From: a virus
Lineage: Duplodnaviria; Heunggongvirae; Uroviricota; Caudoviricetes
IMG/VR virus record: IMGVR_UViG_3300025392_000640
Location: 37,214 to 101,213 of that record
Length of the DNA: 64,000 nt
Reading direction: 5' to 3' (one strand)
This document shows positions 11,504 through 53,254 of the stretch, one piece after another. A model generated the notes under the pieces. It saw only the letters and a list, made by a program, of their open reading frames with translations, did not search any database and was not told where the DNA came from. The translations under genes were made by a program, and so were the position numbers. Every line of letters begins with the position of its first letter. Position 1 is the first letter of the stretch.

Positions 11504-11699
11504 ATGCTAATCCCAATAATTCAGTTTGAAGTTCTTGAAAATGCTTTTGTCTTTCAACTTCAGCTTTGAATTTATCCGGCGTTAATTCACTCAACTCAAC
11601 AATATCAAAATGCTGTGTTGGTATTGTAAACACTTGGTATCCACTATTTGTTTTACGAATAGTAATTCCATCCTCAATCCATTCTTTAAGATTTTCCAT
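11448..11699 (-). CDS. hypothetical protein
   Basis: 83-aa ORF. Confidence 0.4.
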   Translation of the reverse strand: MENLKEWIEDGITIRKTNSGYQVFTIPTQHFDIVELSELTPDKFKAEVERQKHFQELQTELLGLAFGKRVEEGLFDDLFEKMD

Positions 11700-13173
11700 A
11701 CTTTTGTTTTATTCTTTTTAAGAAATCAATTTCATCAATAAGTTTATCGTGTTTTTCATTTAATACATCTTCCATATTAGAATGCAAATCCAAAATAATA
11801 GAATTATCTTTCATAGAATCATAGGATTTTATAAATAAATTTTCATCTAAAATACCGTTACCATATCCAACGAGTCTCCAACCTGATGTAGAAAATACAC
11901 TTTCTTTTTTTCTATTAAAATTTAAACTTTCTTTTAAACCACTAATAGTACTAATTAGTTTTTTACTCATATATTTTTCATCACGATATCTATTCCAAAA
12001 TTCTGTATCGGTTCTTTTTGTAATGTAGTGATATTGTAAAAAATCAACAATATCATCATTCAGTTCTCCCAATGCCCAATTGTATTGACCCATATTATAA
12101 GGGTCTTTAAAATCAATATCAAATTTAGTTAATACTAATAATCCAATAATTACCATACCAATAGCAGTTGCTTCCAATGGTTCAACAAATCCGGTACTCA
12201 ATCCAACACCAATACAATTATTAATCCAATTGCTTTTATATCTACCAGGTTCAAAAGATATGGTTCGATTGCATTCAATTTCATGTCCTAATAAATTCTC
12301 AACTTCTTTTTTAGCTTCATCCGAATTTATATAATTGTTATCAAACACATAACCACATCCCCATCTACTTTGTAAAGGTATTTGCCATAACCAACCATAT
12401 TTCATAGCTATAGCCTTTGTGTATGTTGCAATATCAGTTTTGGATTGAGGTAATTGAAATGGTAATGCAGAATTAACTGTTAATCTATCTTTATATGATA
12501 TCCATTCTGTATTATATAATTTACCAATAATTAATCTTTTGAATCCGCTACAATCAAATACGAAATGGATATTTTCTACTTTTGTTTCATTTTCTAGCTC
12601 TATTGTTTTAATATCACCAAATCTATTTTGTACAAAATTAGTAATCACCCCTTCAATTCTTTTTACACCTCTACTTTCTGCAATTTTTTTAAAATAACTT
12701 GCTACTAAGTGGGCATCAAAATGAAATGAAAAATTGACCATTTGAGTATTATTTAATGAAATAGCAGATTTATTGTTATATGCCATATATTTAGATGCAA
12801 TCTTATCATTTAAATCATATCCATTTTTCATCAAAAACCCCCAATATTCACTATCACATATAGGTACATTATCTGGATTAGTTGAAAAGAAATCGTGAAT
12901 ATATTTTTTACCGTTACCATCCCAATTTTCAAAACTAACTCCTAATTTATGTGTTGCATTTGTTTCAACCATAAATTCATTATAATCTATTTTAACAAAT
13001 TGTAAAAAGTCCATCAATCTAGGAATACTACCTTCACCAGCACCCAATATACCAATATCTTCACTTTCAATTAAAGTTATATCAGCGCTACCATCATTAT
13101 ATAAATGCTGTGCCCATAATGCTGACATCCATCCAGCTGTTCCACCACCTACTATAACAATTTGTTTTTTCAT
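11686..13173 (-). CDS. Flavin-dependent (tryptophan-type) halogenase family protein
   Basis: N-terminal FAD site IVIVGGGTAGWMSA and the halogenase signature GWLWQIPL (WxWxIP). Confidence 0.8.
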   Translation of the reverse strand: MKKQIVIVGGGTAGWMSALWAQHLYNDGSADITLIESEDIGILGAGEGSIPRLMDFLQFVKIDYNEFMVETNATHKLGVSFENWDGNGKKYIHDFFSTNPDNVPICDSEYWGFLMKNGYDLNDKIASKYMAYNNKSAISLNNTQMVNFSFHFDAHLVASYFKKIAESRGVKRIEGVITNFVQNRFGDIKTIELENETKVENIHFVFDCSGFKRLIIGKLYNTEWISYKDRLTVNSALPFQLPQSKTDIATYTKAIAMKYGWLWQIPLQSRWGCGYVFDNNYINSDEAKKEVENLLGHEIECNRTISFEPGRYKSNWINNCIGVGLSTGFVEPLEATAIGMVIIGLLVLTKFDIDFKDPYNMGQYNWALGELNDDIVDFLQYHYITKRTDTEFWNRYRDEKYMSKKLISTISGLKESLNFNRKKESVFSTSGWRLVGYGNGILDENLFIKSYDSMKDNSIILDLHSNMEDVLNEKHDKLIDEIDFLKRIKQKYGKS

Positions 13174-18046: not shown

Positions 18047-19093
18047 TTAGTTATCAATATCTTTTTTAAATGGTTTGCTCCACTTTGGTTTAATCATTTT
18101 CCAAATAGTATCTTCGTATGATTTACCATCCCACATTGAGAACAATATAGAACGATATTCATTATCTTTGATTGCTAATGCAAATTCTTTTTTATCACCA
18201 TTTGATTCACCTTTATAATATTCAAAATCAATAGAGCTTCTGAATTTAATATTTTCAAAATGTGCTTTCAATTCCAATACAGTCATTCTAACCCAATTAT
18301 CAAACTCATCCGGTACTCTATCTAAGAACTCATTTAAGTTTCCATCGGTTCTCAATAATTCCCAAATATCAGTAGTTGAAAAGTTAGTTAATATTCTATG
18401 TAAACGAACATACTCATCACCTTTGATTTTCATTCTCATTCCTCTTTTGAAACGAACAACAAATCCTTCGGCATCATTTGAAATTATTCCTTTTAAAGTT
18501 TTGAAATCAGTTACTCCATCGTATTTTTTAACTACTTCAAATCCTTCACTTTCCATATTTTCAATACTACCTTCAATTCCAATTTCATTATTGTAAACTG
18601 CTAATACAACTAATTTCTCAGCTCCACCATAATCAACAACAATTCTATTTTCAGGGTATATGATTTCAAATAAGTAAGTGTAACCTGGTATCATTCCATA
18701 CTTAGTATTTTCTTTACTCAATAACTCTTTACCTTTGATAGCTTGTTCGGATGTGAAAGAACCACGTGTTGCTATATGCCACTCATCATTATAGAAAAAG
18801 CATATACCCAAGCTACCATCCATTTTTTCAAATACTTCAAATGACTGATTTGGTATTGATTCGGGTGACAATTCCTCATAGTTAAAGAATTTTGGAAATG
18901 GTTTAGCAATTAAATTACCTTCGTTATCTAAAACTAATCCCCTACATTCTAAAGTAATCGGGTCCCACAATTTTTCGTACTGAACACCTCTGCTATAATT
19001 GTATATAGATAAAGGTAAAGTTGGGTGGTCTTGTTTAATCACCCAACCTTTCTCTACATACTGCTTAAGTAATTCAAATTTATCGTATTTCAC
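18047..19093 (-). CDS. RNA ligase (Rnl1/T4 RnlA-like nucleotidyltransferase)
   Basis: Motif I KMDGSL, motif IV EGFVVRF, motif V MKIKG; 348 aa. Confidence 0.75.
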   Translation of the reverse strand: MKYDKFELLKQYVEKGWVIKQDHPTLPLSIYNYSRGVQYEKLWDPITLECRGLVLDNEGNLIAKPFPKFFNYEELSPESIPNQSFEVFEKMDGSLGICFFYNDEWHIATRGSFTSEQAIKGKELLSKENTKYGMIPGYTYLFEIIYPENRIVVDYGGAEKLVVLAVYNNEIGIEGSIENMESEGFEVVKKYDGVTDFKTLKGIISNDAEGFVVRFKRGMRMKIKGDEYVRLHRILTNFSTTDIWELLRTDGNLNEFLDRVPDEFDNWVRMTVLELKAHFENIKFRSSIDFEYYKGESNGDKKEFALAIKDNEYRSILFSMWDGKSYEDTIWKMIKPKWSKPFKKDIDN

Positions 19094-23917: not shown

Positions 23918-24003
23918 GTTTTTTTGGTTGTAACGGGTTGATTTTCAACGAGTTATGAGGCTTTTATAAGTGACTGATTATCAATGAGTTATAGCCATTG
24001 ATT

Positions 24004-29306: not shown

Positions 29307-29495
29307 TTTAAGGTAAAAATCTTTAAAAATTCTTTATTGATTATCAACACGTTAGCCGGATGTCCCAAAAACCCCACGTAACTCGTTGATAATCAATTTA
29401 ATACATATTAGCCACTTTTTAGCCCTTTTTAGGGGGGTCTAATGGGTTTTAAGGTCAATACCTAACCCAACCCGAAAGGACTTAAAAAAAGGGGT

Positions 29496-34249: not shown

Positions 34250-34281
34250 TAAAACTACGAATAATCCCCGAAACTGCCAAA
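34250..34281 (-). promoter_or_regulatory. Variant promoter with upstream palindromic elements at 34301-34320 and 34341-34365
   Basis: aaaactacgaataatccccgaaactgccaaat, then aaaattctttattgagaatcaatgagttac. Confidence 0.5.
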
Positions 34282-34475
34282 TTTGGCACAAAAATTCTTT
34301 ATTGAGAATCAATGAGTTACATATATGTTTTTTTATAATATCCTAACGTGTTGATTATCAATAAAGAATTTTATCCATTTTAAGGGTATTTTTAACCGAT
34401 TTTAGGGTGTCTACCTTATTTTGGGGTAAATACCCATTTTAGGGATAAAAAGGGGTAAAATACCCCTTATTTTCA

Positions 34476-38589: not shown

Positions 38590-39003
38590 TATGTTTTCTG
38601 TGTACCATTCCAATATCTCCTCACCAGCTTTTATATCCCTTAAAGCAAATCCTCTATCACTTAAATTTTGTCTTTCTCTATCAGGCCATGCAGAATTACA
38701 AAAACTAAATCCGTGGAATAGAAAATTTAATCCTTTATATAATCGTATTACTTTGAATCCACATTCATCATTAATAAAGTAGGCATCTAATAATTCGAAT
38801 ACTTCCTTTGGTATTAAATGTAATTTATCATTTGGTATAAGATATATCCCACTATCATATTCCCACGCTGGAAACACTCTATCACCTTTGGGTATATCTT
38901 TAATAGCAAATACACCAACGCCATTAATAGGTGAAACGCCAATCTTAGTTTTTATATTCTTACTTAAATGATATAGTACTTCTTCGGTTATATCCGTTTC
39001 CAT
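38569..39003 (-). CDS. SET-domain-like protein (putative protein lysine methyltransferase)
   Basis: GVGVFAIKDIPKGDRVFPAWEY at the N-terminus and ALRDIKAGEEILEWY at the C-terminus. Confidence 0.5.
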   Translation of the reverse strand: METDITEEVLYHLSKNIKTKIGVSPINGVGVFAIKDIPKGDRVFPAWEYDSGIYLIPNDKLHLIPKEVFELLDAYFINDECGFKVIRLYKGLNFLFHGFSFCNSAWPDRERQNLSDRGFALRDIKAGEEILEWYTENINLVDSK

Positions 39004-40514
39004 TATTCTTTAATATATTTAAAAAATTCTTCGTTAGTCATATATTCTTTATGTATCTTACCATATTCCTTTTCCATTAGTTTAGAAAAATAATAAGCTT
39101 TATCCAATTTATCGGCGGTTATTAATTCACGTTCAATCATTTTTTTATCTTTGAGTAAACCTGCCATTTCTAATATATGACACCATATTCCCCACCCACT
39201 CATACCATGCCCATCTTTAAAATCCAACATATTTAATAATCTATGTTTTGATATTTCAATAAGTTCTTTATTATAATCAGTTATTACCATTTCATTTTTA
39301 ATAAATTTCCAAAATGTAGTATCATTTCTACCAGACAAATAGTGCATTTGTAAAAGGTCTCTGGTATCATCAATCATCTTATTTACACCTTCATTATATT
39401 TTCTTTTGCTAATTTCGCATTTTATAGATTCATTTGATTTTAAATAATGATTTATAAAATTAGTAATTCCTATTAAGGATATATGAATAGATGTAGCTTG
39501 TAATGGTTCTAAAAAATGAGAAGCTAATCCAAATGATACAACATTATTATACCAAGTATTTTCATATCTACCAGCTTCAAATTTAATTTCTCTAATTGAA
39601 TCTATTTCTTGTCCTAGTTTTCTTTCTACCTCATCTATTGCTTTGCTTTTTGTTTGAAATCCATCACAATAAACATATCCATTTCCATATCTTTCCTGCA
39701 AAGGTATTTTCCACATCCAACCGGCATTCATTGTTTCTGCTAAAGTTTCAAATCTAACATTCTTAGATGTTATTTCAGTTGAAAATGGTATAGCTGTATT
39801 TACAGGTAAATTTTCTTTATAAGAAATCCATTTATTTTTTGTCTTACCTATTAATATTCTATTAAATCCACTACAATCAAACCACATATCAGCAGAAAGA
39901 TTTTGACCATTTGATAATTTAATATTTTTTACATATTCATTTTCATCAAAGTTTACATCAGTAATTTCACTATCTATTACTTTAACTCCAAACTTTAAAC
40001 AAATATCCTTAAAATATTTACCAACTTCATGTCCGTCAAAATGATATGAATATGTATTATGTCCTAATGTAAGTGCACCAGTTTCTCCTCTTTTTGTTTT
40101 TTTAGAAAATGGTGTAATTTTATTTTCTAATAAATGATATTGTAAAGAAGCCATATCACCTCTACCATTTTTTAATATAGAACCAAAGAATGCTATATCA
40201 ATATGATTGTGGGATGTCATTGATGCATTTATGGGCGAGTATGTATATTTACCATCACCTTTCCAATTTTTTAATTTAATTCCCAATTTAATAGTTCCCT
40301 TAGTTTTTTTAAGCATATCAACTTCATCAACTAAATTTTCAGGCCATTCTTGATTTATAAACCAAGGGAAAGAACCTGTTGAACCTTCACCCGCTCCAAT
40401 GATACCATATTTAGAACTTTCAATAACTGTCACTTCATGCCCTACAGTTTCTTTTATCAAAGTTGCTGCAGCTATCCAACCTGCCGTTCCACCACCTACT
40501 ATAACAATTTTCAT
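39003..40514 (-). CDS. Flavin-dependent (tryptophan-type) halogenase family protein, second copy
   Basis: KIVIVGGGTAGWIAA FAD motif and AGWMWKIPL (WxWxIP). Confidence 0.8.
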   Translation of the reverse strand: MKIVIVGGGTAGWIAAATLIKETVGHEVTVIESSKYGIIGAGEGSTGSFPWFINQEWPENLVDEVDMLKKTKGTIKLGIKLKNWKGDGKYTYSPINASMTSHNHIDIAFFGSILKNGRGDMASLQYHLLENKITPFSKKTKRGETGALTLGHNTYSYHFDGHEVGKYFKDICLKFGVKVIDSEITDVNFDENEYVKNIKLSNGQNLSADMWFDCSGFNRILIGKTKNKWISYKENLPVNTAIPFSTEITSKNVRFETLAETMNAGWMWKIPLQERYGNGYVYCDGFQTKSKAIDEVERKLGQEIDSIREIKFEAGRYENTWYNNVVSFGLASHFLEPLQATSIHISLIGITNFINHYLKSNESIKCEISKRKYNEGVNKMIDDTRDLLQMHYLSGRNDTTFWKFIKNEMVITDYNKELIEISKHRLLNMLDFKDGHGMSGWGIWCHILEMAGLLKDKKMIERELITADKLDKAYYFSKLMEKEYGKIHKEYMTNEEFFKYIKE

Positions 40515-43113: not shown

Positions 43114-43602
43114 CTATAACTTAACTAAATGGTCAGCCGCATAAGTTGCGATTGGACCTAATGATTTATATCTTACTTCATATCCCATACCTTCTACCAA
43201 ACCAACTGCTTGCCTAAACACTTCATTTGATTTATACTTTGGGTCTGGATTAATATCAATATCAATCCATCTTGGTTTTGGAATACCAGCTTCTTTTAAA
43301 AATTCTGCGGTTTCAATAGCGTACCATATTTCATTTAATAAACGAACTGAACGAGTGTATTCTCTTTCGGTTTTCCATCTTCTATATAAAACATGCGCAC
43401 CTTTCCCCTTACGATACAAAGCAACTACTACCGCATAGGTTGTTTTATCCGAATGATTTTGCGAATCACATCCAATTAGGATTTCAACATTGTGGTTTTC
43501 ATTTTCTTCCATGTACTTTTGGACATAAGGAACTAATTCTAATTCCTCTTTGTCATACAATCTTTTGTATTTCATAATAAGGGTTTTGTTGTTGTACCCC
43601 AA
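43114..43602 (-). CDS. YkuK/DUF458-like RNase H-fold protein
   Basis: ILIGCDSQNHSDKTTYAVVVALYRKGKGAH resembles the YkuK family core. Confidence 0.45.
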   Translation of the reverse strand: MGYNNKTLIMKYKRLYDKEELELVPYVQKYMEENENHNVEILIGCDSQNHSDKTTYAVVVALYRKGKGAHVLYRRWKTEREYTRSVRLLNEIWYAIETAEFLKEAGIPKPRWIDIDINPDPKYKSNEVFRQAVGLVEGMGYEVRYKSLGPIATYAADHLVKL

Positions 43603-43675
43603 AAGAGACTCGAACTCTTACATCTTACGATACCGGCTTCTAAGACCGGTGTGGCTACCATTACACCATCGGGGC
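43595..43675 (-). tRNA. tRNA-Leu (anticodon UAG)
   Basis: Hand-folded: acceptor GCCCCGA/TTGGGGT, anticodon loop CTTAGAA, long variable arm, T-loop GTTCGAGTC. Confidence 0.7.
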
Positions 43676-43690
43676 TATTTAAAAGAACTA

Positions 43691-43770
43691 CTGCTGTTAG
43701 AGCAGGATTCGAACCATGCAAAGGGAGATTCGGAAAGTAACACAATGCTTGCAAGCTGGTGGTCAACCCC
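43691..43770 (-). ncRNA. tRNA-like element with canonical GGTTCGAATCC T-loop motif but no foldable cloverleaf (pseudo-tRNA?)
   Basis: ggattcgaacc at 43706-43716; 3' hairpin CTGCTCTAACAGCAG plus U-rich tail; no acceptor pairing found. Confidence 0.3.
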
Positions 43771-43844
43771 ATATTACTTTTCTATTTCTTAATCCCTGCC
43801 CACGAGACGAGTGGGTGTGTTTGCCGAAGTCATAACTGAGATGA

Positions 43845-44069
43845 CTAATTTTCACCATCTAACAATTTATTATCTTTATTAATGTTAAATGTTGCATTAT
43901 GAAAGATTCTGATTTGGTCACTACGATAGTGCCTAACTATACCACCTTCACACAATACAACACACCAAATATCATTTTCCAACATCCCACTATCGGTAAC
44001 ATAAATAGCGTAACCATCTTTGTTACCCTCAACTACAACGGGTATTGGCTTTTGAAATTCTAACATCAT
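43845..44069 (-). CDS. hypothetical protein embedded in tRNA region
   Basis: 74-aa ORF. Confidence 0.4.
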   Translation of the reverse strand: MMLEFQKPIPVVVEGNKDGYAIYVTDSGMLENDIWCVVLCEGGIVRHYRSDQIRIFHNATFNINKDNKLLDGEN

Positions 44070-44082
44070 AATAGATAATTTG

Positions 44083-44170
44083 CGGAGAGTCAGGGATTCG
44101 AACCCCAGATACCGTTTCCAGTATGACGGTTTTCAAGACCGTTCCATTCAACCACTCTGGCAACTCTCCG
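44083..44170 (-). tRNA. tRNA-Ser (UGA)
   Basis: Acceptor GGAGAGT/ACTCTCC, anticodon loop CTTGAAA, long variable arm, T-loop GGTTCGAATCC. Confidence 0.8.
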
Positions 44171-44178
44171 TTTTTATA

Positions 44179-44436
44179 CTAATAGATATTATCTTCCTTA
44201 GAAATCCTAAAATCTATACTACTTTGCCTTCTTCTAGCTTCTTCTGCTTCTTTAACCCATCTAATCCAAGTTAAAGCAACATCAATAGGTGCTAAAATCC
44301 AAGCCATAACAATAACCATAATAGTATCTAACTCTGGTGATTGTGAAGTTACACTACCATCATATCTTTTATTCAAATTTTTAAATAGCTGATAAAAACA
44401 ATAGATAACACAAATAATGTAATAACCAATAAACAT
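44179..44436 (-). CDS. small membrane protein
   Basis: Track ORF 44179..44460 trimmed to the internal Met so the start lies downstream of the promoter. Confidence 0.4.
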   Translation of the reverse strand: MFIGYYIICVIYCFYQLFKNLNKRYDGSVTSQSPELDTIMVIVMAWILAPIDVALTWIRWVKEAEEARRRQSSIDFRISKEDNIY

Positions 44437-44456
44437 AACTTTCTTTTTTAATTTTA

Positions 44457-44490
44457 TCAAAGATACGATAATATTTTCACATTACCAAAT
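44457..44490 (-). promoter_or_regulatory. Bacteroidetes-type promoter
   Basis: caaagatacgataatattttcacattaccaaat. Confidence 0.55.
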
Positions 44491-44497
44491 CTTTTTG

Positions 44498-44568
44498 TTC
44501 CCCCTCAAGGATTCGAACCTCAACTATATGGACCAAAACCACATGTACTACCGTTATACTAAAGGGGA
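44498..44568 (-). tRNA. tRNA-Gln (UUG)
   Basis: U1-A72 acceptor TCCCCTT/AGGGGGA, anticodon loop TTTTGGT. Confidence 0.8.
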
Positions 44569-44709
44569 GTGTCTCAAGCATTCTACTTCCCGCAGTGCGA
44601 AATTGTATCTTACTTAGCCCATCGCTAGCGGTATGGGTACTTGAGTGTGTGAATGAAAAACATCTATTCTTCTTGCGGCCTGTTCACAATGGCCCACTTA
44701 TCTTTATCG

Positions 44710-44782
44710 AGCAGCGAAAGAGATTCGAACTCTCTCGTCCAGCTTGGAAGGCTGGCGTGCTACCATTGAACACCACCGCTGC
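44710..44782 (-). tRNA. tRNA-Gly (UCC)
   Basis: Acceptor GCAGCGG/TCGCTGC, anticodon loop CTTCCAA. Confidence 0.8.
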
Positions 44783-44890
44783 TTTTGTGTAGGTTTTTCT
44801 TTCACATTTAGCCCAAACACCAGTGAATCAATGTTTGGATTTTGAACCGAGTGCCCAATAAGGGGCTTTACAACCTACAAACTCTGTCAG

Positions 44891-44963
44891 AGCGGAAGAC
44901 CAGGCTCGAACTGGCCACCTATGCCTTGGCAAGGCATCGCTCTACCGAATGAGCTACTTCCGC
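44891..44963 (-). tRNA. tRNA-Gly (GCC)
   Basis: Acceptor GCGGAAG/CTTCCGC, anticodon loop TTGCCAA. Confidence 0.85.
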
Positions 44964-44971
44964 AATTTTTG

Positions 44972-45045
44972 TGGGAAAGACTGGGTTCGAACCAGTGACC
45001 TCAAAATTATGAGTTTTTTGCTCTAACCAACTGAGCTACATTCCC
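44972..45045 (-). tRNA. tRNA with CAU anticodon (elongator Met or Ile2/lysidine)
   Basis: Acceptor GGGAATG/CTTTCCC with one U-U mismatch, anticodon loop CTCATAA, all-AU anticodon stem. Confidence 0.7.
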
Positions 45046-45162
45046 AATAAAGATTATATTCATTCTGCCGTTAGTAGTCTATTTACCATTAACTACCACG
45101 TGTATCTAGTCAGACTTCTTTGGGGTTGGTATCGTTCCCTTCATATAATCTTTAAATAAGGT

Positions 45163-45252
45163 GCCGGTGGTGAGATTGGTTACTCACACGAAGTCCCTTT
45201 CGGATGAATCGCCCTTTCTAGTTCGGATGCGTCTAAATTCCGCCACACCGGC
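45163..45252 (-). ncRNA. tRNA-like structured element (perfect 7-bp terminal helix GCCGGTG/CACCGGC, non-canonical T-loop TAACCAAT)
   Basis: Hand fold: terminal helix, D-like hairpin GCG-GAATTTAGA-CGC, hairpin CGAAAGGGACTTCG, T-like stem GTGAG/CTCAC; no standard anticodon arm. Confidence 0.3.
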
Positions 45253-45269
45253 ATATATCTTTTAATCTT

Positions 45270-45569
45270 TTAATCTTTTAATTCATTAATAAGACTATCT
45301 ATCATATCATCACCTAAAGAAATTTGATGTAGGTTTTTTATTTTTAAATAGTTTTCTAAATACATTGATGCGGTTACTAACTTGTCACCTTTTTGTATCT
45401 CTATTTTAATAATACCGCTTGTGTTTGTTGTTTCGGATGGTGTGATTTTTTTAGTCAAACTTTCAATTTTTTCGGCTATCGTATCCAAATCATTTTTATC
45501 TATTTCAACAGTATTAACATCATCTCCATATCCATAATCTATGAGTATGTTTTTAATTTTTTCTTTCAT
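45270..45569 (-). CDS. hypothetical protein
   Basis: Track ORF 45270..45608 overlaps tRNA-Ala; start moved to the internal Met (MKEKIKN). Confidence 0.4.
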   Translation of the reverse strand: MKEKIKNILIDYGYGDDVNTVEIDKNDLDTIAEKIESLTKKITPSETTNTSGIIKIEIQKGDKLVTASMYLENYLKIKNLHQISLGDDMIDSLINELKD

Positions 45570-45584
45570 AACTTTTTGTTTAGT

Positions 45585-45657
45585 GGAGAATGAGGGAGTC
45601 GAACCCACGACCTTCTGAATGCAAATCAGACGCTCTAGCCAACTGAGCTAATTCCCC
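45585..45657 (-). tRNA. tRNA-Ala (UGC)
   Basis: Acceptor GGGGAAT (G3-U70 wobble present), anticodon loop TTTGCAT. Confidence 0.8.
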
Positions 45658-45667
45658 ATATTTATCG

Positions 45668-45753
45668 TGCCTCAAGTGGGAGTCGAACCCACACGAACTT
45701 TTCGGTTCACAGGATTTTAAGTCCTGCGTGGCTACCAATTACACCATCGAGGC
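45668..45753 (-). tRNA. tRNA-Leu (UAA)
   Basis: Acceptor GCCTCGA/TTGAGGC, anticodon loop CTTAAAA, long variable arm. Confidence 0.8.
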
Positions 45754-45759
45754 AGTTTG

Positions 45760-45831
45760 TAGTCCGGCGTGGAATCGAACCACGAACCAAATCTTAGAAG
45801 GATTTTGTTATATCCATTTAACTACCAGACC
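45760..45831 (-). tRNA. tRNA-Arg (UCU)
   Basis: Anticodon loop CTTCTAA, T-arm CGTGG-TTCGATT-CCACG. Confidence 0.8.
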
Positions 45832-46027
45832 AAAAAATAGATGAGAGGGTTATTACGTCTAATAACTCCAAAGTTTCTACCGGCCGTTTATGGAATATGC
45901 GCACTGACCATAAACTAAGCTTTCGTCTGCATCTCATCTCAAAAAACATCAAATGGGATTCCAACCCATACTTTCGGGCAATTACTCCCGATGTGCTAAC
46001 GTCAGTTACACTATTGATATTTTTATG

Positions 46028-46101
46028 CGGAACGTAGGGAACTCGAATCCCTGACCTCTACAGTGACAGTGTAGCATTCTAACCAACTGAACTAACGCTC
46101 C
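46028..46101 (-). tRNA. tRNA-Asp (GUC)
   Basis: Acceptor GGAGCGT/ACGTTCC, anticodon loop CTGTCAC. Confidence 0.8.
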
Positions 46102-46176
46102 GTAATTACTAATTCATCTTTATTTGCACCACCACGTCATGCGTAGGTTGACATATACCTCAATGAATTAGTTCTG

Positions 46177-46250
46177 AGCCTAAGGTGAGATTCGAACTCA
46201 CGACTCCGAAATTACAAATTTCGTACTCTGGCCAACTGAGTTACTCAGGC
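46177..46250 (-). tRNA. tRNA-Thr (UGU)
   Basis: Acceptor GCCTGAG/CTTAGGC, anticodon loop TTTGTAA. Confidence 0.8.
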
Positions 46251-46258
46251 TTATATTG

Positions 46259-46330
46259 TAGTCCCGAGCGGAATCGAACCGCCCTTTTCAGGATGAAAAC
46301 CTAACGTCCTAACCGATAGACGACGGGACC
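46259..46330 (-). tRNA. tRNA-Glu (UUC)
   Basis: Anticodon loop TTTTCAT, T-arm GGCGG-TTCGATT-CCGCT. Confidence 0.8.
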
Positions 46331-46350
46331 ATATTATTTAAAAGAACATT

Positions 46351-46384
46351 ACAAATATACGATAATTTTTTCAAACTACCAAAT
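46351..46384 (-). promoter_or_regulatory. Bacteroidetes-type promoter immediately upstream of tRNA-Glu and the downstream tRNA block
   Basis: acaaatatacgataattttttcaaactaccaaat. Confidence 0.55.
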
Positions 46385-46393
46385 TTGTTTTTG

Positions 46394-46482
46394 CGGAGAG
46401 CGGAGTATTCGAAACTCGCCCAACTTAATGGGTTCTCGTTTAGCAAACGAGCGGGGAACACCTTTGCCCTCCTTCACTCTCC
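46394..46482 (-). tRNA. tRNA-Ser (GCU)
   Basis: Acceptor GGAGAGT/GCTCTCC, anticodon loop TTGCTAA, long variable arm. Confidence 0.75.
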
Positions 46483-46484
46483 AA

Positions 46485-46559
46485 TGGTGTGACCGAAGAG
46501 AATCGAACTCTTACATAAAGTGCCACAAACTTTCGCCCTACCATTAGGCTACGGCCACC
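46485..46559 (-). tRNA. tRNA-His (GUG) with encoded G-1 and 3' CCA
   Basis: GGTGGCCG... 5' end (extra G-1), anticodon loop TTGTGGC, 3' ...CGGTCACACCA. Confidence 0.8.
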
Positions 46560-46565
46560 ATGTTG

Positions 46566-46640
46566 TAGCGTGAACAAGATTCGAACTTGTGTCTGAGCCT
46601 TATGAGAGCTCCGTAAGAAAACCAACTCTACCATCACGCT
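46566..46640 (-). tRNA. tRNA with CAU anticodon (Met/Ile2), second copy
   Basis: A1-U72 acceptor AGCGTGA/TCACGCT, anticodon loop CTCATAA. Confidence 0.75.
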
Positions 46641-46707
46641 ATTTGTGGAATTGAACCACCTTCCCAGCTTAATGCCGGGCGATACATCCAGTATCCTTCA
46701 CCGGTTG
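46641..46707 (-). ncRNA. Truncated tRNA-like fragment (T-arm plus anticodon-like hairpin, no 3' acceptor strand)
   Basis: GGTGGTTCAATTCCAC T-arm abuts the 5' end of the adjacent tRNA; hairpin CCCGG-CATTAAG-CTGGG. Confidence 0.3.
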
Positions 46708-46778
46708 AGGCGTGTATTGGAATCGAACCAATCTAAAAGGATTTGCAGTCCTCCACCTAGCCACTCGGACAACTCGCC
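46708..46778 (-). tRNA. tRNA-Cys (GCA)
   Basis: Acceptor GGCGAGT (one A-A mismatch), anticodon arm GAGGA-CTGCAAA-TCCTT, T-arm ATTGG-TTCGATT-CCAAT; overall similar to bacterial tRNA-Cys. Confidence 0.65.
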
Positions 46779-47321
46779 TTATCGGTTTAGTTTATTAATA
46801 CATTCATCTATCTTATCTCTCAATCTTCCGCCACGTCCAAAATCACCATCAACTTGTACATGCCTCCACATTGGAATACGATGTTTCATCCATTTGAACT
46901 CTGCACTCAATTTCATATCATCAATTGCAATCCAGTTACTAATCTTATTATCCTTAACCCATTTTACAATCTGATGTGCTCTCTCAAACTCTAAGGATGG
47001 ATTACTCATCTTATTCCAAATTCCCAGCTTTCTACTACTCATATGTGTTGTGATATCAATCAATGGAGCATGAATACCAAACTCAATAAATGTATCACTC
47101 ATTTGCCTAAGAGTAAAGTGCAACTTCCAATCTGATGATAATACTAATTCTGCATTAGTCTTGTCACAAATTTCTTGCAATGCTTCACAATCCTCTTTTA
47201 CTAATGGGTAAGGTATTGTAAACTCATTCATAGTATTTTCGTTTATCTTCACTTTACCATCATCCCATGTTGCCCAAGCTAATGGCCCATCAACATCAAT
47301 AAAAATAATTTTCTTTCTCAT
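46779..47321 (-). CDS. HAD-superfamily phosphatase-like protein (embedded in tRNA cluster)
   Basis: N-terminal IIFIDVDGPL (HAD motif I) and WIAIDD (motif IV-like). Confidence 0.55.
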   Translation of the reverse strand: MRKKIIFIDVDGPLAWATWDDGKVKINENTMNEFTIPYPLVKEDCEALQEICDKTNAELVLSSDWKLHFTLRQMSDTFIEFGIHAPLIDITTHMSSRKLGIWNKMSNPSLEFERAHQIVKWVKDNKISNWIAIDDMKLSAEFKWMKHRIPMWRHVQVDGDFGRGGRLRDKIDECINKLNR

Positions 47322-47347
47322 AACTTTAATTTTTAATTTTTTAATTG

Positions 47348-47421
47348 TACTCTCTAAGAGACTCGAACTCCTAACCCCTTCGTCCGTAGCGAAGTGCTCT
47401 AATCCATTGAGCTAAGAGAGC
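47348..47421 (-). tRNA. tRNA-Arg (ACG)
   Basis: Anticodon arm CTTCG-CTACGGA-CGAAG. Confidence 0.8.
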
Positions 47422-47427
47422 TATTTG

Positions 47428-47496
47428 CACGCAGTGAAGGAATCGAACCCTCTCGTAAAGATTTGGAGTCTTTTTAGCTACCATAGCCTACCACGT
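47428..47496 (-). tRNA. tRNA-Trp (CCA)
   Basis: A1-U72 acceptor ACGTGGT, anticodon arm AAAGA-CTCCAAA-TCTTT; short D region. Confidence 0.65.
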
Positions 47497-47503
47497 ATGT
47501 TTG

Positions 47504-47577
47504 TTGGAATAGCGAGATTCGAACTTGCCACCTTCTCGGTATCAGCGAGATGCTCTAACCAAATGAGCTATATTCCA
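47504..47577 (-). tRNA. tRNA-Ile (GAU)
   Basis: Acceptor TGGAATA/TATTCCA, anticodon loop CTGATAC. Confidence 0.75.
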
Positions 47578-47587
47578 ATTTTTAAAG

Positions 47588-47662
47588 TAGGGTAAAGAGG
47601 ACTCGAACCTCCACGATGTCTTGCTCCCAAAGCAAGCGGCCTAGCCATTGGCCCATTACCCT
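47588..47662 (-). tRNA. tRNA-Pro (UGG)
   Basis: Acceptor AGGGTAA/TTACCCT, anticodon loop TTTGGGA. Confidence 0.8.
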
Positions 47663-47668
47663 ATATTG

Positions 47669-47742
47669 TTCCCCCGGTAGGATTCGAACCTACAACCCAC
47701 CGGGTAAAAGCCGGTTACTCTAGCCAATTGAGCTACAAGGGA
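47669..47742 (-). tRNA. tRNA-Lys (UUU)
   Basis: Anticodon arm ACCGG-CTTTTAC-CCGGT, T-arm GTAGG-TTCGAAT-CCTAC. Confidence 0.8.
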
Positions 47743-47792
47743 TTCTTTTGTCACTCTTGTCACTTTCCATAATCATTGTTTTTAATTGTTAG

Positions 47793-47864
47793 TGGTAATG
47801 AGTGGAATCGAACCACTGCTACTAAGTCTTCAGCCTAGCGCTCTACCAACTGAGCTACATCACC
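47793..47864 (-). tRNA. tRNA-Phe (GAA)
   Basis: Acceptor GGTGATG/CATTACC, anticodon loop CTGAAGA. Confidence 0.85.
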
Positions 47865-47928
47865 TTGCCTTTTTTAGCGTTTTTGAATAGAACGCAAGGA
47901 CAGTACGACCTGAAAACTATTAGGGTTG

Positions 47929-48009
47929 TGGGAGTAAGAAGACTCGAACTTCTGAAGCCGATGGCGTTTGATTTACAGTCAAATGTGATTGCCGCTACAC
48001 GATACTCCC
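47929..48009 (-). tRNA. tRNA-Tyr (GUA)
   Basis: Acceptor GGGAGTA/TACTCCC, anticodon loop CTGTAAA, long variable arm. Confidence 0.8.
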
Positions 48010-48014
48010 AATTG

Positions 48015-48086
48015 TAGAAGTGGAGAATTATGATATCCCGTCCTCTTGGATGTAAGCCAAGCGCTCTCCCTCTGAGCTACACTTCT
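48015..48086 (-). tRNA. tRNA-Val (UAC) with non-canonical T-loop
   Basis: Perfect acceptor AGAAGTG/CACTTCT, D-arm GCTC-AGAGGGA-GAGC, anticodon loop CTTACAT; T-loop ATCATAA lacks TTC. Confidence 0.6.
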
Positions 48087-48114
48087 ATTTTCCACAATGT
48101 CAAAGAACCAAATG

Positions 48115-48187
48115 CGTTAGTGATAGGATTCGAACCTATGGCCACTTGATTAACAGTCAAGAGCTCTACCAGCTGAGCTACACCAAC
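48115..48187 (-). tRNA. tRNA-Asn (GUU)
   Basis: Acceptor GTTGGTG/CACTAAC, anticodon loop CTGTTAA. Confidence 0.85.
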
Positions 48188-48199
48188 ATTTATTTACAA

Positions 48200-48247
48200 A
48201 CATCCCAAAAACAAAAAACCTCTAACTTTTTTATCGGTTAGAGGTCT
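48200..48247 (-). terminator. Rho-independent terminator (minus strand) just upstream of the tRNA cluster
   Basis: Hairpin cctctaac/gttagagg; minus strand has stem followed by TTTTTTGTTTTTGGG. Confidence 0.55.
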
Positions 48248-48261
48248 TTCAATATTGTTAT

Positions 48262-48430
48262 AAAATTTTACACTTTATCCCCAATTATCATCCTCTAACT
48301 TCGTACTAATATAATCCACTTTGCCTAAATTTGCTTGTGCCGGATTACTTATCGTACTAAACATACGAATCCCACACCATTCATTTCTCAATGTAGGTTG
48401 CGAACAATTTGTATGTAGTGTTAAAGTTTT
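48262..48430 (-). CDS. small hypothetical protein (below track threshold)
   Basis: ~55-codon minus ORF MKTLTLHTNCSQPTLRNEW... ending before the terminator. Confidence 0.3.
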
Positions 48431-48574
48431 CATCTTTGTTATGTTAATAAGTATATAATAATTTTATTTTCAGTTTTTTTAATTCTTATAAGCCTAAATC
48501 GGGAAGTATATTGCTATACTCCCCTCTCTAAGTTGTAATAAAAATTAAGATATGAAACGAACAACCTTTCAGTT

Positions 48575-48665
48575 GTTAGTAGAGCGGGACCAATGATTCG
48601 AACATCATCCTCTCACCTGGTCGGTAAGTGTGCTACCATTACACCAATTCCGCTTATGTGGAAAG
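48575..48665 (-). ncRNA. tRNA-like/pseudo-tRNA (T-arm TGATG-TTCGAAT-CATTG, acceptor with mismatch, aberrant anticodon loop)
   Basis: Hand fold; a degenerate partial copy of its 5' half (gtgtgctac.attacac) recurs at 48915-48950. Confidence 0.3.
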
Positions 48666-49902
48666 TTTTTCGAGTTGGAGAGGAACTTTCCGAGCGCTGC
48701 CGAAACCCCATAATACATTTTCGTATTGATTACTTTGCTTTAAGCCTTTTACAGCTTTGGCGAAATCCAATCTAAACCACATTAGGCTTCCTACTTTTAA
48801 GTTTCTAGTTTAAGTCCCAAACCAACTTGCTCTCACTAATGCGAACACAATGTTAAACAGACTACGATGAGCGGTTAAAGGTTCTGCCCCCCTCCTCTCC
48901 ACTGGAATGTGAAGTGTGCTACTATTACACTAAAACCGCTTATAAATGGATGAGAATACTCCAATGGGTGATTCAGCTTTAGAAGGATTATTGAGTTCCC
49001 TTCGTTTCCACTTCCTTTTGAGAAGTACCAAATCAATGCAGGTCATTATAGATAACCACTCTTAAAGTTGTAACTTACTCACCTATTACTCCCCTTATTC
49101 AATCCTGCCGAACTGATTCAACCTTGCGGGTCTATAAGCTTTTCGTAGATATCACATCCGCCTTGCGAGCGTTTGTGGCTGGGAACAACTCCCAACTATG
49201 TATGCACCTTTCGGTTACAACTGATGAACACTTTTGCTTTATGTTTATTTATAGTTTTTTACGCCGAAGTAAAAATAAAGTTTTGGTTCGTAGATTGATT
49301 CAGGTAGCGGTTCATCACCAGCTCTGTCCCCTTTTGAAGAACAGAATACTATACTACCCAATGCGTTATCTCAACGCCATACTTCAAGTCATCTTCATCA
49401 ATAGGGATTGGTGTCCCACATTGAAGGATAGTAACGGCACCACCCGTACACAGTCTTACCTTACGTCTTTTCAGATAGCTTGGTGTTAAGACCACTTTGG
49501 TATTGAATCACGCAATAGTAAAAAGGGATTAGCTTTTTATATCTTACATAAATCCTATGAGTTATTCTTATTGCTGTTCCCAGCTCAACTAAGGAATCTA
49601 CAGTTCCCTAGTCATCCCAACTCGTCAATGATAGTGTTACCCCCACCTACAAAGCCAGAATGATATCTCACTTGCCTACTCAAGCTCATAAGTCCACAGA
49701 CCTATAAACCGCAGAATGTTTAACCAAACATCCCACTTTATCCTACTTTCGTAGTTTATTTAACGACCATAGGCGGCCGTTTGTTCACTATATAACACAA
49801 GGTTATTATGTGAAGTATTTTTAATAATTTAAAGAACTAATTTGATTCTCAATTTTGTTTTCTGGTCAAACCAATCAACTACTTTATTTTTGAATCTTAG
49901 TA

Positions 49903-50337
49903 AAGATACGAAGAATATTTTATTCCACCAAATCTTTTTTTATTTTTGTTGAAACATTTTCGGCTGTGTTTACTTACACCATTTATACTTCCTACTTCTG
50001 AATCAACTTAGTAAAGATACGATAAATTTTTCAATCTACCAAATCTTTTTTTAACTTATTGATAATCAACAAGTTAGTTAAGATATCCGGCTTTCTTCCC
50101 TATTGGATAGGTCACTCAATCGGTTTTATTATTGATGGCTTCAACCTTAACTTTGTTAAAGATACGATAAATATTTCAATCTACCAAATCTTTTTTTGTT
50201 GCGGGGGATGGATTCGAACCACCGACCTAAAGGTTATGAGCCTTCCGAGCTACCTCTGCTCTACCCCACGATATATAAAGAACTTTTATCTCTTTTGATT
50301 TAATCAAAGATACGAATAAATTCCGAATCTACCAAAT
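49903..50337 (-). promoter_or_regulatory. Array of four tandem promoter copies (49903-49933, 50013-50044, 50157-50189, 50305-50337) interleaved with palindromic elements and a tRNA
   Basis: taaagatacgaagaat...ccaccaaat; taaagatacgataaat...ctaccaaat (twice); caaagatacgaataaa...ctaccaaat. Confidence 0.55.
50199..50270 (-). tRNA. Initiator-type tRNA-fMet (CAU)
   Basis: C1-A72 mismatch; CGTGGGGTAGAGCAG...CTCATAA...GGTCGGTGGTTCGAATCCATCCCCCGCAA closely parallels bacterial tRNA-fMet. Confidence 0.75.
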
Positions 50338-50431
50338 CTTTTTTAAGTCATTGAAAATCAATGAGTTATAAACATAGGATTTATAAGTATATGTAAATAT
50401 ACAAAAAGTATCCGAATTTACAAAATTTATT

Positions 50432-51133
50432 TTACTTATTTTTTGAAAGCATTGCTACCAATGATGTAGCTGCTTTTTTAACAGGACTTTTATCATCATA
50501 TTTCAAAGCGGATGTCACTTTGATATCTTTACCTGTAATTGGATTTCTAACTGTTTTGTTAGCTATATCCTTTGGTAACGATGATGCTAATTTAGCCATA
50601 TCAGGTTGTTTTGCTTTTTGCCCAACACCTCTCTTAAATGTAAATGTACTCTTAGGTCCACTTTTCATTTTAGAATAAGCCTGTTGAATTGTATCAGGAT
50701 GCATTTTACCCATATTTTCGGTATGGCCATCTCTATATAATAAGAAAGCGTTTCCCTTTGTTTGTTCACCAGCATATAATACTGAATCTTGTCCGTATTT
50801 ATTACCAAGTTCATGTGCATCTTTAATACTGATATTAGGAACAAAGAAAGATTCTTCGATACTATCTTTTAATTTTTCTTCAGGACATTGTGCATAATTC
50901 ATATTAGAATCCGTACATTCTCTCCATCTTCCTTCAACTTTAAAGAAACCAAGTCCTTTACCTCTAAGGTCAGATTCCAATTTCTTATTAAGTTCTCTAT
51001 TTTCCTTTGGAGTGTTCAAATATCTAAATGCAGTCATCATCGCCCAACTTGTAGTATTCTTTTGCTGTTGTACGTGTTGATATACTCTACTTAAAGAGGC
51101 TTCATCTAAATTATGTATTTTACAATTTCCCAT
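50432..51133 (-). CDS. hypothetical protein
   Basis: 233-aa ORF. Confidence 0.5.
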   Translation of the reverse strand: MGNCKIHNLDEASLSRVYQHVQQQKNTTSWAMMTAFRYLNTPKENRELNKKLESDLRGKGLGFFKVEGRWRECTDSNMNYAQCPEEKLKDSIEESFFVPNISIKDAHELGNKYGQDSVLYAGEQTKGNAFLLYRDGHTENMGKMHPDTIQQAYSKMKSGPKSTFTFKRGVGQKAKQPDMAKLASSLPKDIANKTVRNPITGKDIKVTSALKYDDKSPVKKAATSLVAMLSKNK

Positions 51134-51702: not shown

Positions 51703-52029
51703 TTAATTTAATGATTTTTGTAACTTTTGTATCTCCGCACATTTTTCATATGCTTCAATCTCAATCATATATTCCATCAACCTATCTAAAGTTTGGTCTA
51801 TATCTTCTTTTGAAATACTAAAATCAACAATCAATCCCGGTTGTACATCTTTTAACTTTGCTGGTTCTTTTGGTTTAGTAACTAACTTAAGAATTATTTT
51901 ATTTTTTGATTTACTTTCAATAAAATCAAAAACATTATCATAGATACTATCCATTATAATACCTCTATTCTCCTCTGCCCAATCTCTAATCGGAGTACCT
52001 GGTTCTATGTATATCTTTTTAGCTGCCAA
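51703..52029 (-). CDS. hypothetical protein
   Basis: 108-aa ORF. Confidence 0.45.
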   Translation of the reverse strand: MAAKKIYIEPGTPIRDWAEENRGIIMDSIYDNVFDFIESKSKNKIILKLVTKPKEPAKLKDVQPGLIVDFSISKEDIDQTLDRLMEYMIEIEAYEKCAEIQKLQKSLN

Positions 52030-52612
52030 TTTTTTGCTTATTGATTCGTTTTTCTAGTTCTCTTTTTATACTAGCTTCTCTCATTTTAAGCTTTGTTTCT
52101 TCTGAGAATGGTTTTCTTTTTTTACCTAGTTTAGATAATGATATATTCAGTTTGTGTTCTTCTGTATATTTTTTGCCTAATTTAGATTTTGTTAATTTTT
52201 CTAAATGTTCTGGTGATAATTTATATTCTCTATTTTTATTGGAAAAGCGAATTGCTTCTTTATTAGCTTCGCTCATTATTTTACCTTTATGTATTTTAGA
52301 TAGTTTTAATCTAGTTTCTAATGAAGGATTGAGATGTCCATCACCACCATCGGTTTTATTCACTAATGTACCAGTTTCTAAATCAATTCTTCCGTATTCT
52401 AATATTAATTGAACTTCCTTTTTACATGCAGTTTCCCAATCTAGCCCATCTTCTATAATTTCAACTATATATCCAACTTTATTAACAACTTTCTGCCAAT
52501 GGTTATTTCTTCCTCTTTTACTATAAGCTCTTTGATATTTAGAATCACTACCAATACCAATATAAAATACTTCGTTGCTATCTTTTCTTATATGTTTATA
52601 GATATATGCCAT
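52019..52612 (-). CDS. GIY-YIG homing endonuclease with NUMOD3-like repeats
   Basis: AYIYKHIRKDSNEVFYIGIGSD (GIY-YIG) and C-terminal repeated SPEHLEKLTKSKLGKKY / TEEHKLNISLSKLGKK / SEETKLKMREA modules. Confidence 0.8.
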   Translation of the reverse strand: MAYIYKHIRKDSNEVFYIGIGSDSKYQRAYSKRGRNNHWQKVVNKVGYIVEIIEDGLDWETACKKEVQLILEYGRIDLETGTLVNKTDGGDGHLNPSLETRLKLSKIHKGKIMSEANKEAIRFSNKNREYKLSPEHLEKLTKSKLGKKYTEEHKLNISLSKLGKKRKPFSEETKLKMREASIKRELEKRINKQKIGS

Positions 52613-52627
52613 ATTCTAGCATAAATA

Positions 52628-53254
52628 TTATATTTTGGGGAATAAAATGTTTTCCATAAAGTACTTAGCCTTATCTTCTCCAATTAAAGCTTTTAATGCT
52701 GAGAATGTTCTTGGATTAGTGGCCTGTATTGTACAATATTGATTTTGTTTCTCTATAATAGCTTCTTCATCGCCTTTCCTTTCCAACCAAAGTAAAGAAT
52801 TTAGATACCATTCGTATTTTTCCAACACCCATTTTTTAAATTCCAAAAATTCTTCCACACTTTCAGGTGCCATCATTATAAATCTATCACTAAATACAGT
52901 TGCCCATTGTGGTATAGGTTTGCGATTACCAATATTCATTCCATCATCAAATGGGTATTGATTAATACCGGGGCTTAAATCCATATATGCCCCAGTAATT
53001 TTTTTACCAGTGGTTATCACATCAAACCCAAAGATAGGTTCAGGAGACCACTTATGCGGAAAGGTAGTAAAGTGTAATACCTCTATCTTAGAATCCGAAT
53101 ATCTTTCAACATGCGCCATTCTGAATAAATCGGATGAAAATCTATGATTAGTCCAACCATAGTTTTCAGTTTCCATAGGTTCTAAACCCGGCGCTGTTGT
53201 AACTAAATCTAATAGCTCTTGTGCTATTGTATCTAACATTACTTTATTGTCCAT
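52628..53254 (-). CDS. Ferredoxin-dependent bilin reductase family protein (PcyA/PebA-like)
   Basis: FRMAHVE, VLHFTTFP, PIFGFDVI and AYMDLSP align with the conserved PcyA core motifs FRKMHLE, ILHCVMFP, PLFGCDIV and AIADLSP. Confidence 0.75.
   Translation of the reverse strand: MDNKVMLDTIAQELLDLVTTAPGLEPMETENYGWTNHRFSSDLFRMAHVERYSDSKIEVLHFTTFPHKWSPEPIFGFDVITTGKKITGAYMDLSPGINQYPFDDGMNIGNRKPIPQWATVFSDRFIMMAPESVEEFLEFKKWVLEKYEWYLNSLLWLERKGDEEAIIEKQNQYCTIQATNPRTFSALKALIGEDKAKYFMENILFPKI

Follow-up and report, generated by a model that had tools for sequence, protein, structure and literature searches.

The window analysed here is a 64,000-nucleotide stretch of DNA from an uncultivated tailed phage of ~209 kb (Caudoviricetes; IMG/VR record IMGVR_UViG_3300025392_000640, positions 37,214 to 101,213). 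All coordinates are window positions, and labels such as L048 and L057 designate related loci that were fetched for comparison. The segment from 48,200 to 50,431 forms, with a probability of about 0.9, the middle part of an 'RNA island' in which, all leftward, an initiator-type transfer RNA (tRNA) for methionine would be followed by a small structured RNA, here called X, a full-length gene of the RNA family GOLLD, two decayed copies of tRNA-Gly, a gene for a protein of 52 amino acids (aa), a terminator and ~24 further genes of a tRNA array. A search of phage GenBank with the whole region returned only weak matches to GOLLD and tRNA-Met; thus, the window does not belong to any deposited phage. 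An identical copy of one window protein is encoded on a metagenome contig of 209 kb in ENA (ERZ27271960 k141_118880). The parts of the island are listed below in the leftward direction (nt, nucleotides; bp, base pairs; MFE, minimum free energy).

50199..50270, minus strand: initiator-type tRNA-Met(CAU) (ARAGORN; Rfam tRNA model, 59.2 bits; inspection of the sequence)
50158..50069, minus strand: small structured RNA X (covariance model R1, 79.7 bits, E 2e-22)
49780..49900, minus strand: GOLLD leader (pairwise alignment with L048, BLAST to L057, fold)
49779..48947, minus strand: GOLLD RNA gene, full-length, 833 nt (RF02032 match and alignment with the GOLLD RNA env-38)
49779..49362, minus strand: GOLLD 5' domain (aligns with env-38 residues ~1-420)
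49361..48947, minus strand: GOLLD 3' domain (RF02032 end to end)
~49285..49240, minus strand: A/U-rich variable linker of GOLLD (low-conservation A-rich stretch of the RF02032 model)
48870..48939, minus strand: tRNA-like element 1, starting 7 nt past the GOLLD 3' end (cloverleaf with a 7-bp acceptor stem)
48654..48869, minus strand: spacer of 216 nt between the tRNA-like elements, absent from L048
48582..48653, minus strand: tRNA-like element 2 (called tRNA-Gly 'ACC' by ARAGORN; cloverleaf fold)
48440..48581, minus strand: conserved structured region with a pair of hairpins, preceding the small gene (MFE -33.3 kcal/mol, z -4.7)
48433..48275, minus strand: conserved small protein gene, 52 aa, starting MKTLTLHTNCSQ... 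/ MKTLTLHTNCSQPTLRNEW... (tblastn)
48247..48205, minus strand: intrinsic terminator with a 9-bp stem ACCTCTAAC/GTTAGAGGT and a 10-nt loop, then TTTTTTGTTTTT (read directly)

The core of the segment, 49779..48947, is a complete GOLLD RNA gene with a fold conserved in both domains. The Rfam model of the family, RF02032, covers the conserved 3' domain only and has a gathering cut-off of 150 bits; it matches 49361..48947 over its whole length (model positions 1-416 of 416, 304.8 bits, E ~1e-87). An earlier note on this DNA had listed a non-coding RNA among several candidates and had proposed an Rfam scan; the candidate was right in kind, and the scan settles the identity of the core. The alignment with env-38 (JCVI_SCAF_1096627009515/1239-410) spans 49779..48947 from the first to the last base. 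Both RNAs measure 833 nt and share ~72% identity in both domains with small indels only, a figure that is slightly underestimated because the copy of env-38 aligned is text from a PDF supplement with small errors (813 of 831 nt, with one stretch in conflict with the alignment file of the same paper). The differences lie mostly in helix tips and in the internal linker. When the 5' domains of 15 sequences were aligned (13 phage loci besides the window and env-38), their consensus fold contained 108 pairs, 71 of them with compensatory changes, and the 5' domain of the window fits this fold throughout. Relative to L048, the closest relative, core helices are up to 97% identical per 100-column block, and the linker is the most diverged part of the RNA. 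The 3'-domain match is thus found together with a large 5' domain (P1-P13; total ~800 nt), a variable A/U-rich linker behind the first hairpin of the 3' domain and a phage setting near tRNA genes, the attributes by which membership in RF02032 was judged.

The env-38 GOLLD, a marine RNA of 833 nt, forms a 14-mer RNA cage of D7 symmetry, solved by cryo-electron microscopy (PDB 9MEE; Kretsch et al. 2025, PMC12286853), in which the variable linker points into the cage interior (PMC12286853). The oligomer number of GOLLD depends on helices that env-38-type RNAs have; in S. agalactiae, where P9, P11a-c and P21b are missing from GOLLD, the RNA assembles into 12-mers (PMC12990946). Because the window GOLLD has the same helices as env-38 and ~72% identity to it, the 833-nt transcript would fold on its own and assemble into a closed 14-mer cage with the AU-rich linker turned inward. 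The divergence of this linker from that of L048 fits the 'variable linker' that points into the cage interior in env-38. Cage formation by such a close relative of env-38, the one GOLLD for which a full cage structure has been solved, is therefore a reasonable inference. As to function, the best guess is that the role of the cage is connected with the translation RNAs that the phage itself encodes (tRNAs including the initiator and, in relatives, transfer-messenger RNA, tmRNA), for example in holding or shielding them during infection.

Both RNAs come from aquatic metagenomes and lie downstream of a tRNA-Met. Genomic context is visible for the window GOLLD and not in the short env-38 scaffold; cage assembly is established for env-38 and predicted for the window copy. 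GOLLD RNAs also occur in prophages of Lactobacillales, in tRNA arrays of Mycobacterium and in Caulobacter phages (RF02032; PMC12990946, PMC6582537). These share with the window the conserved 3' domain and a phage or prophage setting near tRNA clusters, but their 5' domains are shorter or different. Some known GOLLDs hold a tRNA inside the linker; the linker of the window has none, and its tRNA-like elements follow the 3' end. Two published huge genomes of uncultured phages, unannotated records of 642 and 635 kb, LR756502.1 (L167, ~434.7-435.2 kb) and LR745206.1 (L166), contain GOLLD at 275 and 287 bits, respectively; in LR756502, a tRNA begins 9 nt past GOLLD.

The two elements downstream of GOLLD are decayed copies of tRNA-Gly(UCC), as judged from their sequences. 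Element 1 reaches 22 bits with the Rfam tRNA model (E 0.18; cut-off 29) and folds into a cloverleaf with an MFE of -22.9 kcal/mol (z -2.4), with a UUCCA remnant in an anticodon loop of 6 nt and a degenerate T-loop without GTTCRA; it aligns with the tRNA-Gly(UCC) of L057. Element 2 is 82% identical to the same L057 gene and keeps an intact T-arm, with a mismatch in the acceptor stem and a degenerate anticodon loop (CGACCAG, with G33); it matches no Rfam family at E<=1. Neither element qualifies as a functional tRNA-Gly, for which a score above the Rfam cut-off, U33 in an anticodon loop of 7 nt and a canonical T-loop were required. They share a 32-nt repeat of 88% identity. A pseudo-tRNA with a duplicated fragment of its 5' half had been proposed here earlier; the pseudo-tRNA corresponds to the ARAGORN call at 48582-48653 and the repeat is real, but the duplicate is a whole degenerate tRNA copy. 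The 216-nt spacer between the two folds no more stably than expected (z -0.13), resembles none of the fetched loci and is left as unexplained filler.

A tRNA placed directly behind GOLLD recurs among relatives. In L057, the unit consists of promoter, GOLLD, tRNA-Gly(UCC) and terminator, the intact tRNA starting 6 nt past GOLLD. Across 74 unique GOLLD loci, a tRNA or tRNA-like structure called by ARAGORN begins 6-15 nt past GOLLD in 13, mostly at 6-7 nt. This appears to be an old arrangement that is decaying in some lineages. Because intact tRNAs start 6-7 nt past GOLLD in relatives, the tRNA-like elements may serve as processing handles: by cutting where the element 7 nt downstream begins, RNase P would release the GOLLD 3' end, and the elements would have been kept for this purpose after their decoding ability was lost. 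In the nucleus of eukaryotes, the 3' end of the long RNA MALAT1 is formed via a downstream tRNA-like structure, mascRNA. By analogy only, the window also has a long structured RNA followed within a few nt by a tRNA-like cloverleaf. The sequences of the two systems are unrelated, and in the window the cleavage is predicted from anatomy and a decayed tRNA-Gly of the phage stands in the place of mascRNA.

It is very unlikely that the segment consists merely of the decayed remains of a tRNA array, pseudo-tRNAs and junk without a function of their own. The two degenerate elements and the structureless spacer, absent from L048, are what such decay would leave, but it would explain 48582-48939 only. 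The adjoining 833 nt are a full, high-scoring GOLLD that covaries across distant relatives, and tRNA adjacency at a fixed offset of 6-7 nt recurs in independent lineages. A GOLLD deletion without phenotype was reportedly seen in L. brevis by Weinberg et al. in 2009.

Upstream of GOLLD, the RNA island contains a second structured RNA, which the earlier note had overlooked, as it had the conserved 52-aa frame. X, located between two promoters, belongs to a small RNA family supported by covariation. Its layout is a stem P1 (7-13 bp), UUGAAGCCA, a P2 hairpin (4 bp, with a 12-13-nt loop UAAUAAAACCGA), GUGA, stem P3, AAAGCCGGAUAUC and the closing strand P1'. Across the family the 3' junction reads AAAGCCGGAYAYC, and the P3 hairpin is variable and sometimes absent. 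The first 50 nt are 95% conserved in L048; the copy in L057 has a different outer stem. When IMG/VR was searched with GGTTGAAGCC-N4-12-ATAAAACCGA, 70 contigs were retrieved, and all but one had the nearly invariant AAAGCCGGAYAYC downstream, which had not been part of the query. The covariance model R1 yields 73 matches (60 distinct sequences) at 55-92 bits; the 72 besides the window belong to loci L048, L057-L126, L135 and L156. Members are almost always located a short way upstream of GOLLD. Cells of the X pairs are paired in 87.3% of cases versus 32-43% when the partners are slid, and the covariation score is 0.686 versus 0.09-0.19 (reached by none of 500 shuffles), figures that lean towards the proposed structure since the alignment was fitted to it. 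Stems P1 and P2 differ completely in sequence between lineages.

X has no counterpart in Rfam 15, either at E<=1 in the window and 13 other X-bearing loci or at E<=10 when it is searched in isolation, and its core sequences retrieve only unrelated primers in the literature searched. In bacterial genomes, the motif has 36 matches, 34 of them a protein-coding look-alike without the 3' AAAGCCGG; the only true members are in two small contigs binned as Bacteroidetes. The order tmRNA, tRNA-Met, X, GOLLD and tRNA array, all on one strand, is found in ~50 phage contigs, where the 3' domain of GOLLD begins 600-1400 nt after X and the tRNAs past GOLLD follow the order Asn-Val-Tyr-Phe-Lys-Pro-Ile-Trp-Arg-Cys-His and more. 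X is present in only four of 59 sources picked by a GOLLD motif (58 loci and the window) and is absent from the huge phages LR745206 and LR756502, both of which have GOLLD. Since X is almost always accompanied by GOLLD and few GOLLD loci carry X, X is the mark of a single phage group, in which it nearly always has GOLLD as a neighbour. Direct pairing between X and GOLLD was dropped as a candidate: inspection by eye gave nothing beyond a match of 6 nt, located in a GOLLD helix, which is not significant.

The closest analogues of X, by setting, are two RNAs of phage T4, whose tRNA gene cluster encodes the small stable RNAs species 1 and 2 (rnaC/rnaD). Like these, X is a small structured RNA among phage tRNA genes and is probably processed with them; it differs in its own conserved three-stem fold and its tight link to GOLLD, and no relationship in sequence or structure is expected. 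At somewhat less than even odds, X may be an undescribed structured RNA dedicated to accompanying GOLLD in large phages of Bacteroidota, and the tRNA or tRNA-like element a general, RNase P-dependent route to the GOLLD 3' end. Should X be cargo of the GOLLD cage, help in its assembly as a cofactor or regulate it, or should X act together with the initiator tRNA or tmRNA, it would provide the first genetic handle on the purpose of the cage.

The RNA genes of the island are interleaved with promoter-like repeats and palindromes, as follows.

50394..50424, minus strand: weaker promoter-like site P5, TTTGTAAATTCGGATACTTTTTGTATATTTA, directly after the SAM-lyase-like gene
50346..50368, minus strand: palindrome/hairpin AACTCATTGATTTTCAATGACTT, upstream of promoter P4
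50305..50336, minus strand: predicted promoter P4, 35 nt upstream of tRNA-Met (repeat and motif scan)
50157..50188, minus strand: predicted promoter P3, heading X (repeat and motif scan)
50053..50075, minus strand: palindrome/hairpin AACTTGTTGATTATCAATAAGTT, on the 3' side of X and shortly before promoter P2
50012..50043, minus strand: predicted promoter P2 (repeat and motif scan)
49901..49932, minus strand: predicted promoter P1, TTTGGTGGAATAAAATATTCTTCGTATCTTTA, of repeat family D1, the consensus promoter nearest to GOLLD, ~120 nt from its 5' end

Each repeat reads AAAAAGATTTGGTAGATTGAAA...TCGTATCTTTG/A on the minus strand, i.e. TTTG-N20-TAnnTTTG, with 20-nt spacing in all copies, and exceeds chance (0 expected matches for the 37-mer in shuffles). 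TTTG/TAnnTTTG (-33/-7, ~19-21 nt apart) is the consensus of Bacteroidota promoters for sigma-A, the housekeeping factor. The full form, TTTGG-N19-TAnnTTT[AG], occurs at 19 minus-strand sites in the window; the plus strand has 22 loose pattern matches, none with the extended form by inspection. Distances from promoter to gene are typically 19-28 nt for listed ATG open reading frames (ORFs) and 22-35 nt for tRNA 5' ends, hence both the motif spacing and the position shortly upstream of genes are those of promoters. Four leftward promoter copies had been described earlier, and the copies at 49901, 50012, 50157 and 50305 are real, with the weaker fifth at 50394. They had been taken for a local array aimed at the region to their left. 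Instead, the motif recurs throughout the window, and the local copies are predicted from it to be the phage's general, host-type consensus promoter, packed here because the units that they head are short RNA genes. Promoter P4 would drive tRNA-Met, P3 would drive X, P2 a 79-nt stretch and P1, which alone reads directly into GOLLD, the leader and then GOLLD. The 79-nt stretch (50011..49933) has no recognised product, and its 76-nt fold is weak (-10 kcal/mol, z -2.5). Promoter number varies among relatives: L048 has an extra promoter nearer GOLLD that is missing in the window.

Both palindromes noticed earlier are real hairpins. They belong to a family, AACTCRTTGA(w3)TCAAYRAGTT, found on the minus strand 10-25 nt upstream of five window promoters; the other copies, at ~34290-34315, 29330-29345 and 23935-23955, precede promoters at 34250, 29274 and 23885. 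They are candidate binding sites for a regulator or 3' hairpins of the preceding RNA.

These repeats bear on a further proposal of the earlier note, a replication origin or packaging region with iterated promoters, in which the promoter-like repeats would act as iterons or as transcriptional activators of the origin. Five direct repeats in ~530 bp with palindromes, in an AT-rich setting, would suit an origin. Such a site is, however, highly improbable, because the same motif occurs 19 times in its full form across the window, mostly before genes, and each of the stretches that separate the repeats contains a recognisable RNA gene or a conserved element, in a layout kept in ~50 phages. Cumulative GC skew, the check proposed with the idea, declines steadily through the region without an inflection.

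Still less probable is the remnant of a group I or II intron or of a self-cleaving ribozyme, possibly splitting a tRNA gene. Two tRNA-like copies do flank a 216-nt insert, and a homing-endonuclease-like gene lies ~2 kb away (52019-52612), but each copy is a complete cloverleaf and not a half, the spacer has no excess structure, and no group I or II intron, RNase P RNA, 6S RNA, tmRNA or ribozyme family is matched at E<=1 in 48190-50450. That the segment codes for protein, either on the plus strand with its two ORFs (121 and 60 aa) or by way of a different genetic code, has a negligible probability: the best Pfam match (E 0.041) is below the cut-off, the 121-aa frame is antisense to GOLLD, whose substitutions keep base pairs, the 60-aa frame overlies tRNA-like element 2 and the spacer, and all other window genes are on the minus strand.

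The island of RNA genes thus accounts for the region better than any of these alternatives. The window is AT-rich (GC 31.9%), and the local rise in GC noticed earlier amounts to 0.40-0.43 across 48600-49650 versus 0.27-0.33 in the flanks and 0.32 in the whole window. All long ORFs of the window are on the minus strand. The segment had been called free of ORFs, and indeed neither strand has a long one between ~48440 and 49900, but the minus-strand frame of 52 aa at 48433..48275 is a real small gene. By tblastn, its protein is conserved in related phages: 13 loci encode it at 51-94% identity, and the indels among them keep the frame. In each, the gene has GOLLD on one side and tRNA-Asn on the other. 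Neither Pfam nor PHROG has a match. The two-hairpin stretch upstream of it shares ~81-97% identity with L048, and substitutions in its second hairpin are compensatory; it may act as a leader or in processing. The terminator beyond the small gene, a minus-strand hairpin with a T-run, had been recognised correctly; it is kept in L048 and was missed by the consensus scan because its loop has 10 nt.

At the other end of the unit, GOLLD would be transcribed from promoter P1 with a leader of ~115 nt. A 53-nt stretch of this leader (49895..49843) is identical in L048 (~6895-6947) despite differing flanks, and sits there between two promoters. It is followed by a conserved hairpin region (~49838..49785) common to L048 and L057, the BLAST match to L057 starting at 49838 and the hairpin appearing in the fold. 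A sigma-70-like site, TTCACA-16-TATAGT (49787-49814, minus strand), stops 7 nt short of the GOLLD 5' end; it is probably due to chance, since 10 such matches were found versus 8.9 expected in shuffles; it is kept in L048, by chance or as part of the conserved leader hairpin.

Several points weigh against this reading of the island. Cage assembly is argued from homology to env-38, and transcription, ends and abundance of the GOLLD RNA are predicted from consensus promoters and anatomy. Past GOLLD, the closest relative L048 retains only a 48-nt T-arm remnant, and 61 of the 74 GOLLD loci have no detectable adjacent tRNA; thus, a tRNA handle is not required for GOLLD. Finally, no consensus promoter lies between the terminator and tRNA-Asn (48188-48204, minus strand). 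Therefore, the tRNAs from Asn to His would need read-through or an unrecognised promoter.

The core being another copy of a family that is in Rfam and has solved structures, the RNA island opens no new category. What makes it valuable is its context, a stable order of tmRNA, initiator tRNA, X, GOLLD and tRNA array in large aquatic phages that apparently infect Bacteroidota, with each gene placed behind a predicted strong promoter of host type. X, which matches no Rfam family, and the possible tRNA handle that recurs behind the 3' end of GOLLD are concrete, testable leads on the purpose of GOLLD. A host among the Bacteroidota is suggested by the TTTG/TAnnTTTG promoters together with gene starts that are A-rich and devoid of Shine-Dalgarno sequences: a Shine-Dalgarno-like core precedes only two of 72 ORFs, and positions -12..-10 are strongly A-rich. 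The presence of X in contigs binned as Bacteroidetes was counted towards the same host type.

The tRNA at the head of the island had been described as initiator-like, and this is borne out by its C1xA72 mismatch, marked as non-standard in the Rfam alignment and shared with the homologues in L048, L014 and L024, and by the A11:U24 pair of its D stem (GAGC/GCTC). Of the three consecutive G-C pairs in the anticodon stem of bacterial initiators (29-41, 30-40 and 31-39), it has the two adjacent to the anticodon loop, G30-C40 and G31-C39; the pair at 29-41 is A-U, likewise in L048. The same tRNA-Met is found upstream of X and GOLLD in most related loci. ARAGORN makes 25 tRNA calls in the window, all of them minus-strand and spread over 43594-50270. 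Window tRNA genes above the Rfam cut-off number 24; the 25th ARAGORN call is the degenerate element at 48582-48653. Rfam recognises a tRNA missed by ARAGORN at 48015-48086 (minus strand, 51.9 bits), with UAC in the anticodon loop and a syntenic tRNA-Val(UAC) in L048. GC-rich gaps of the array, at 46400-46480, 46640-46710, 45170-45260, 44580-44710 and 43700-43830 on the minus strand, hold T-arm-like motifs and further remnants that resemble tRNAs, and the degenerate stretch at ~46400-46480 corresponds to a tRNA-Ser(GCU) of L048.

Among the other genes of the window, phage-like functions also include an ATP-dependent DNA ligase. The following were located.

11686-13173 and 39003-40514: two tryptophan-halogenase-like genes
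18047-19093: T4-type RNA ligase
46779-47321: HAD domain of RNA-repair proteins, within the tRNA array
50432-51133: SAM-lyase-like protein gene
52019-52612: homing-endonuclease-like gene
52628-53254: ferredoxin-dependent bilin reductase

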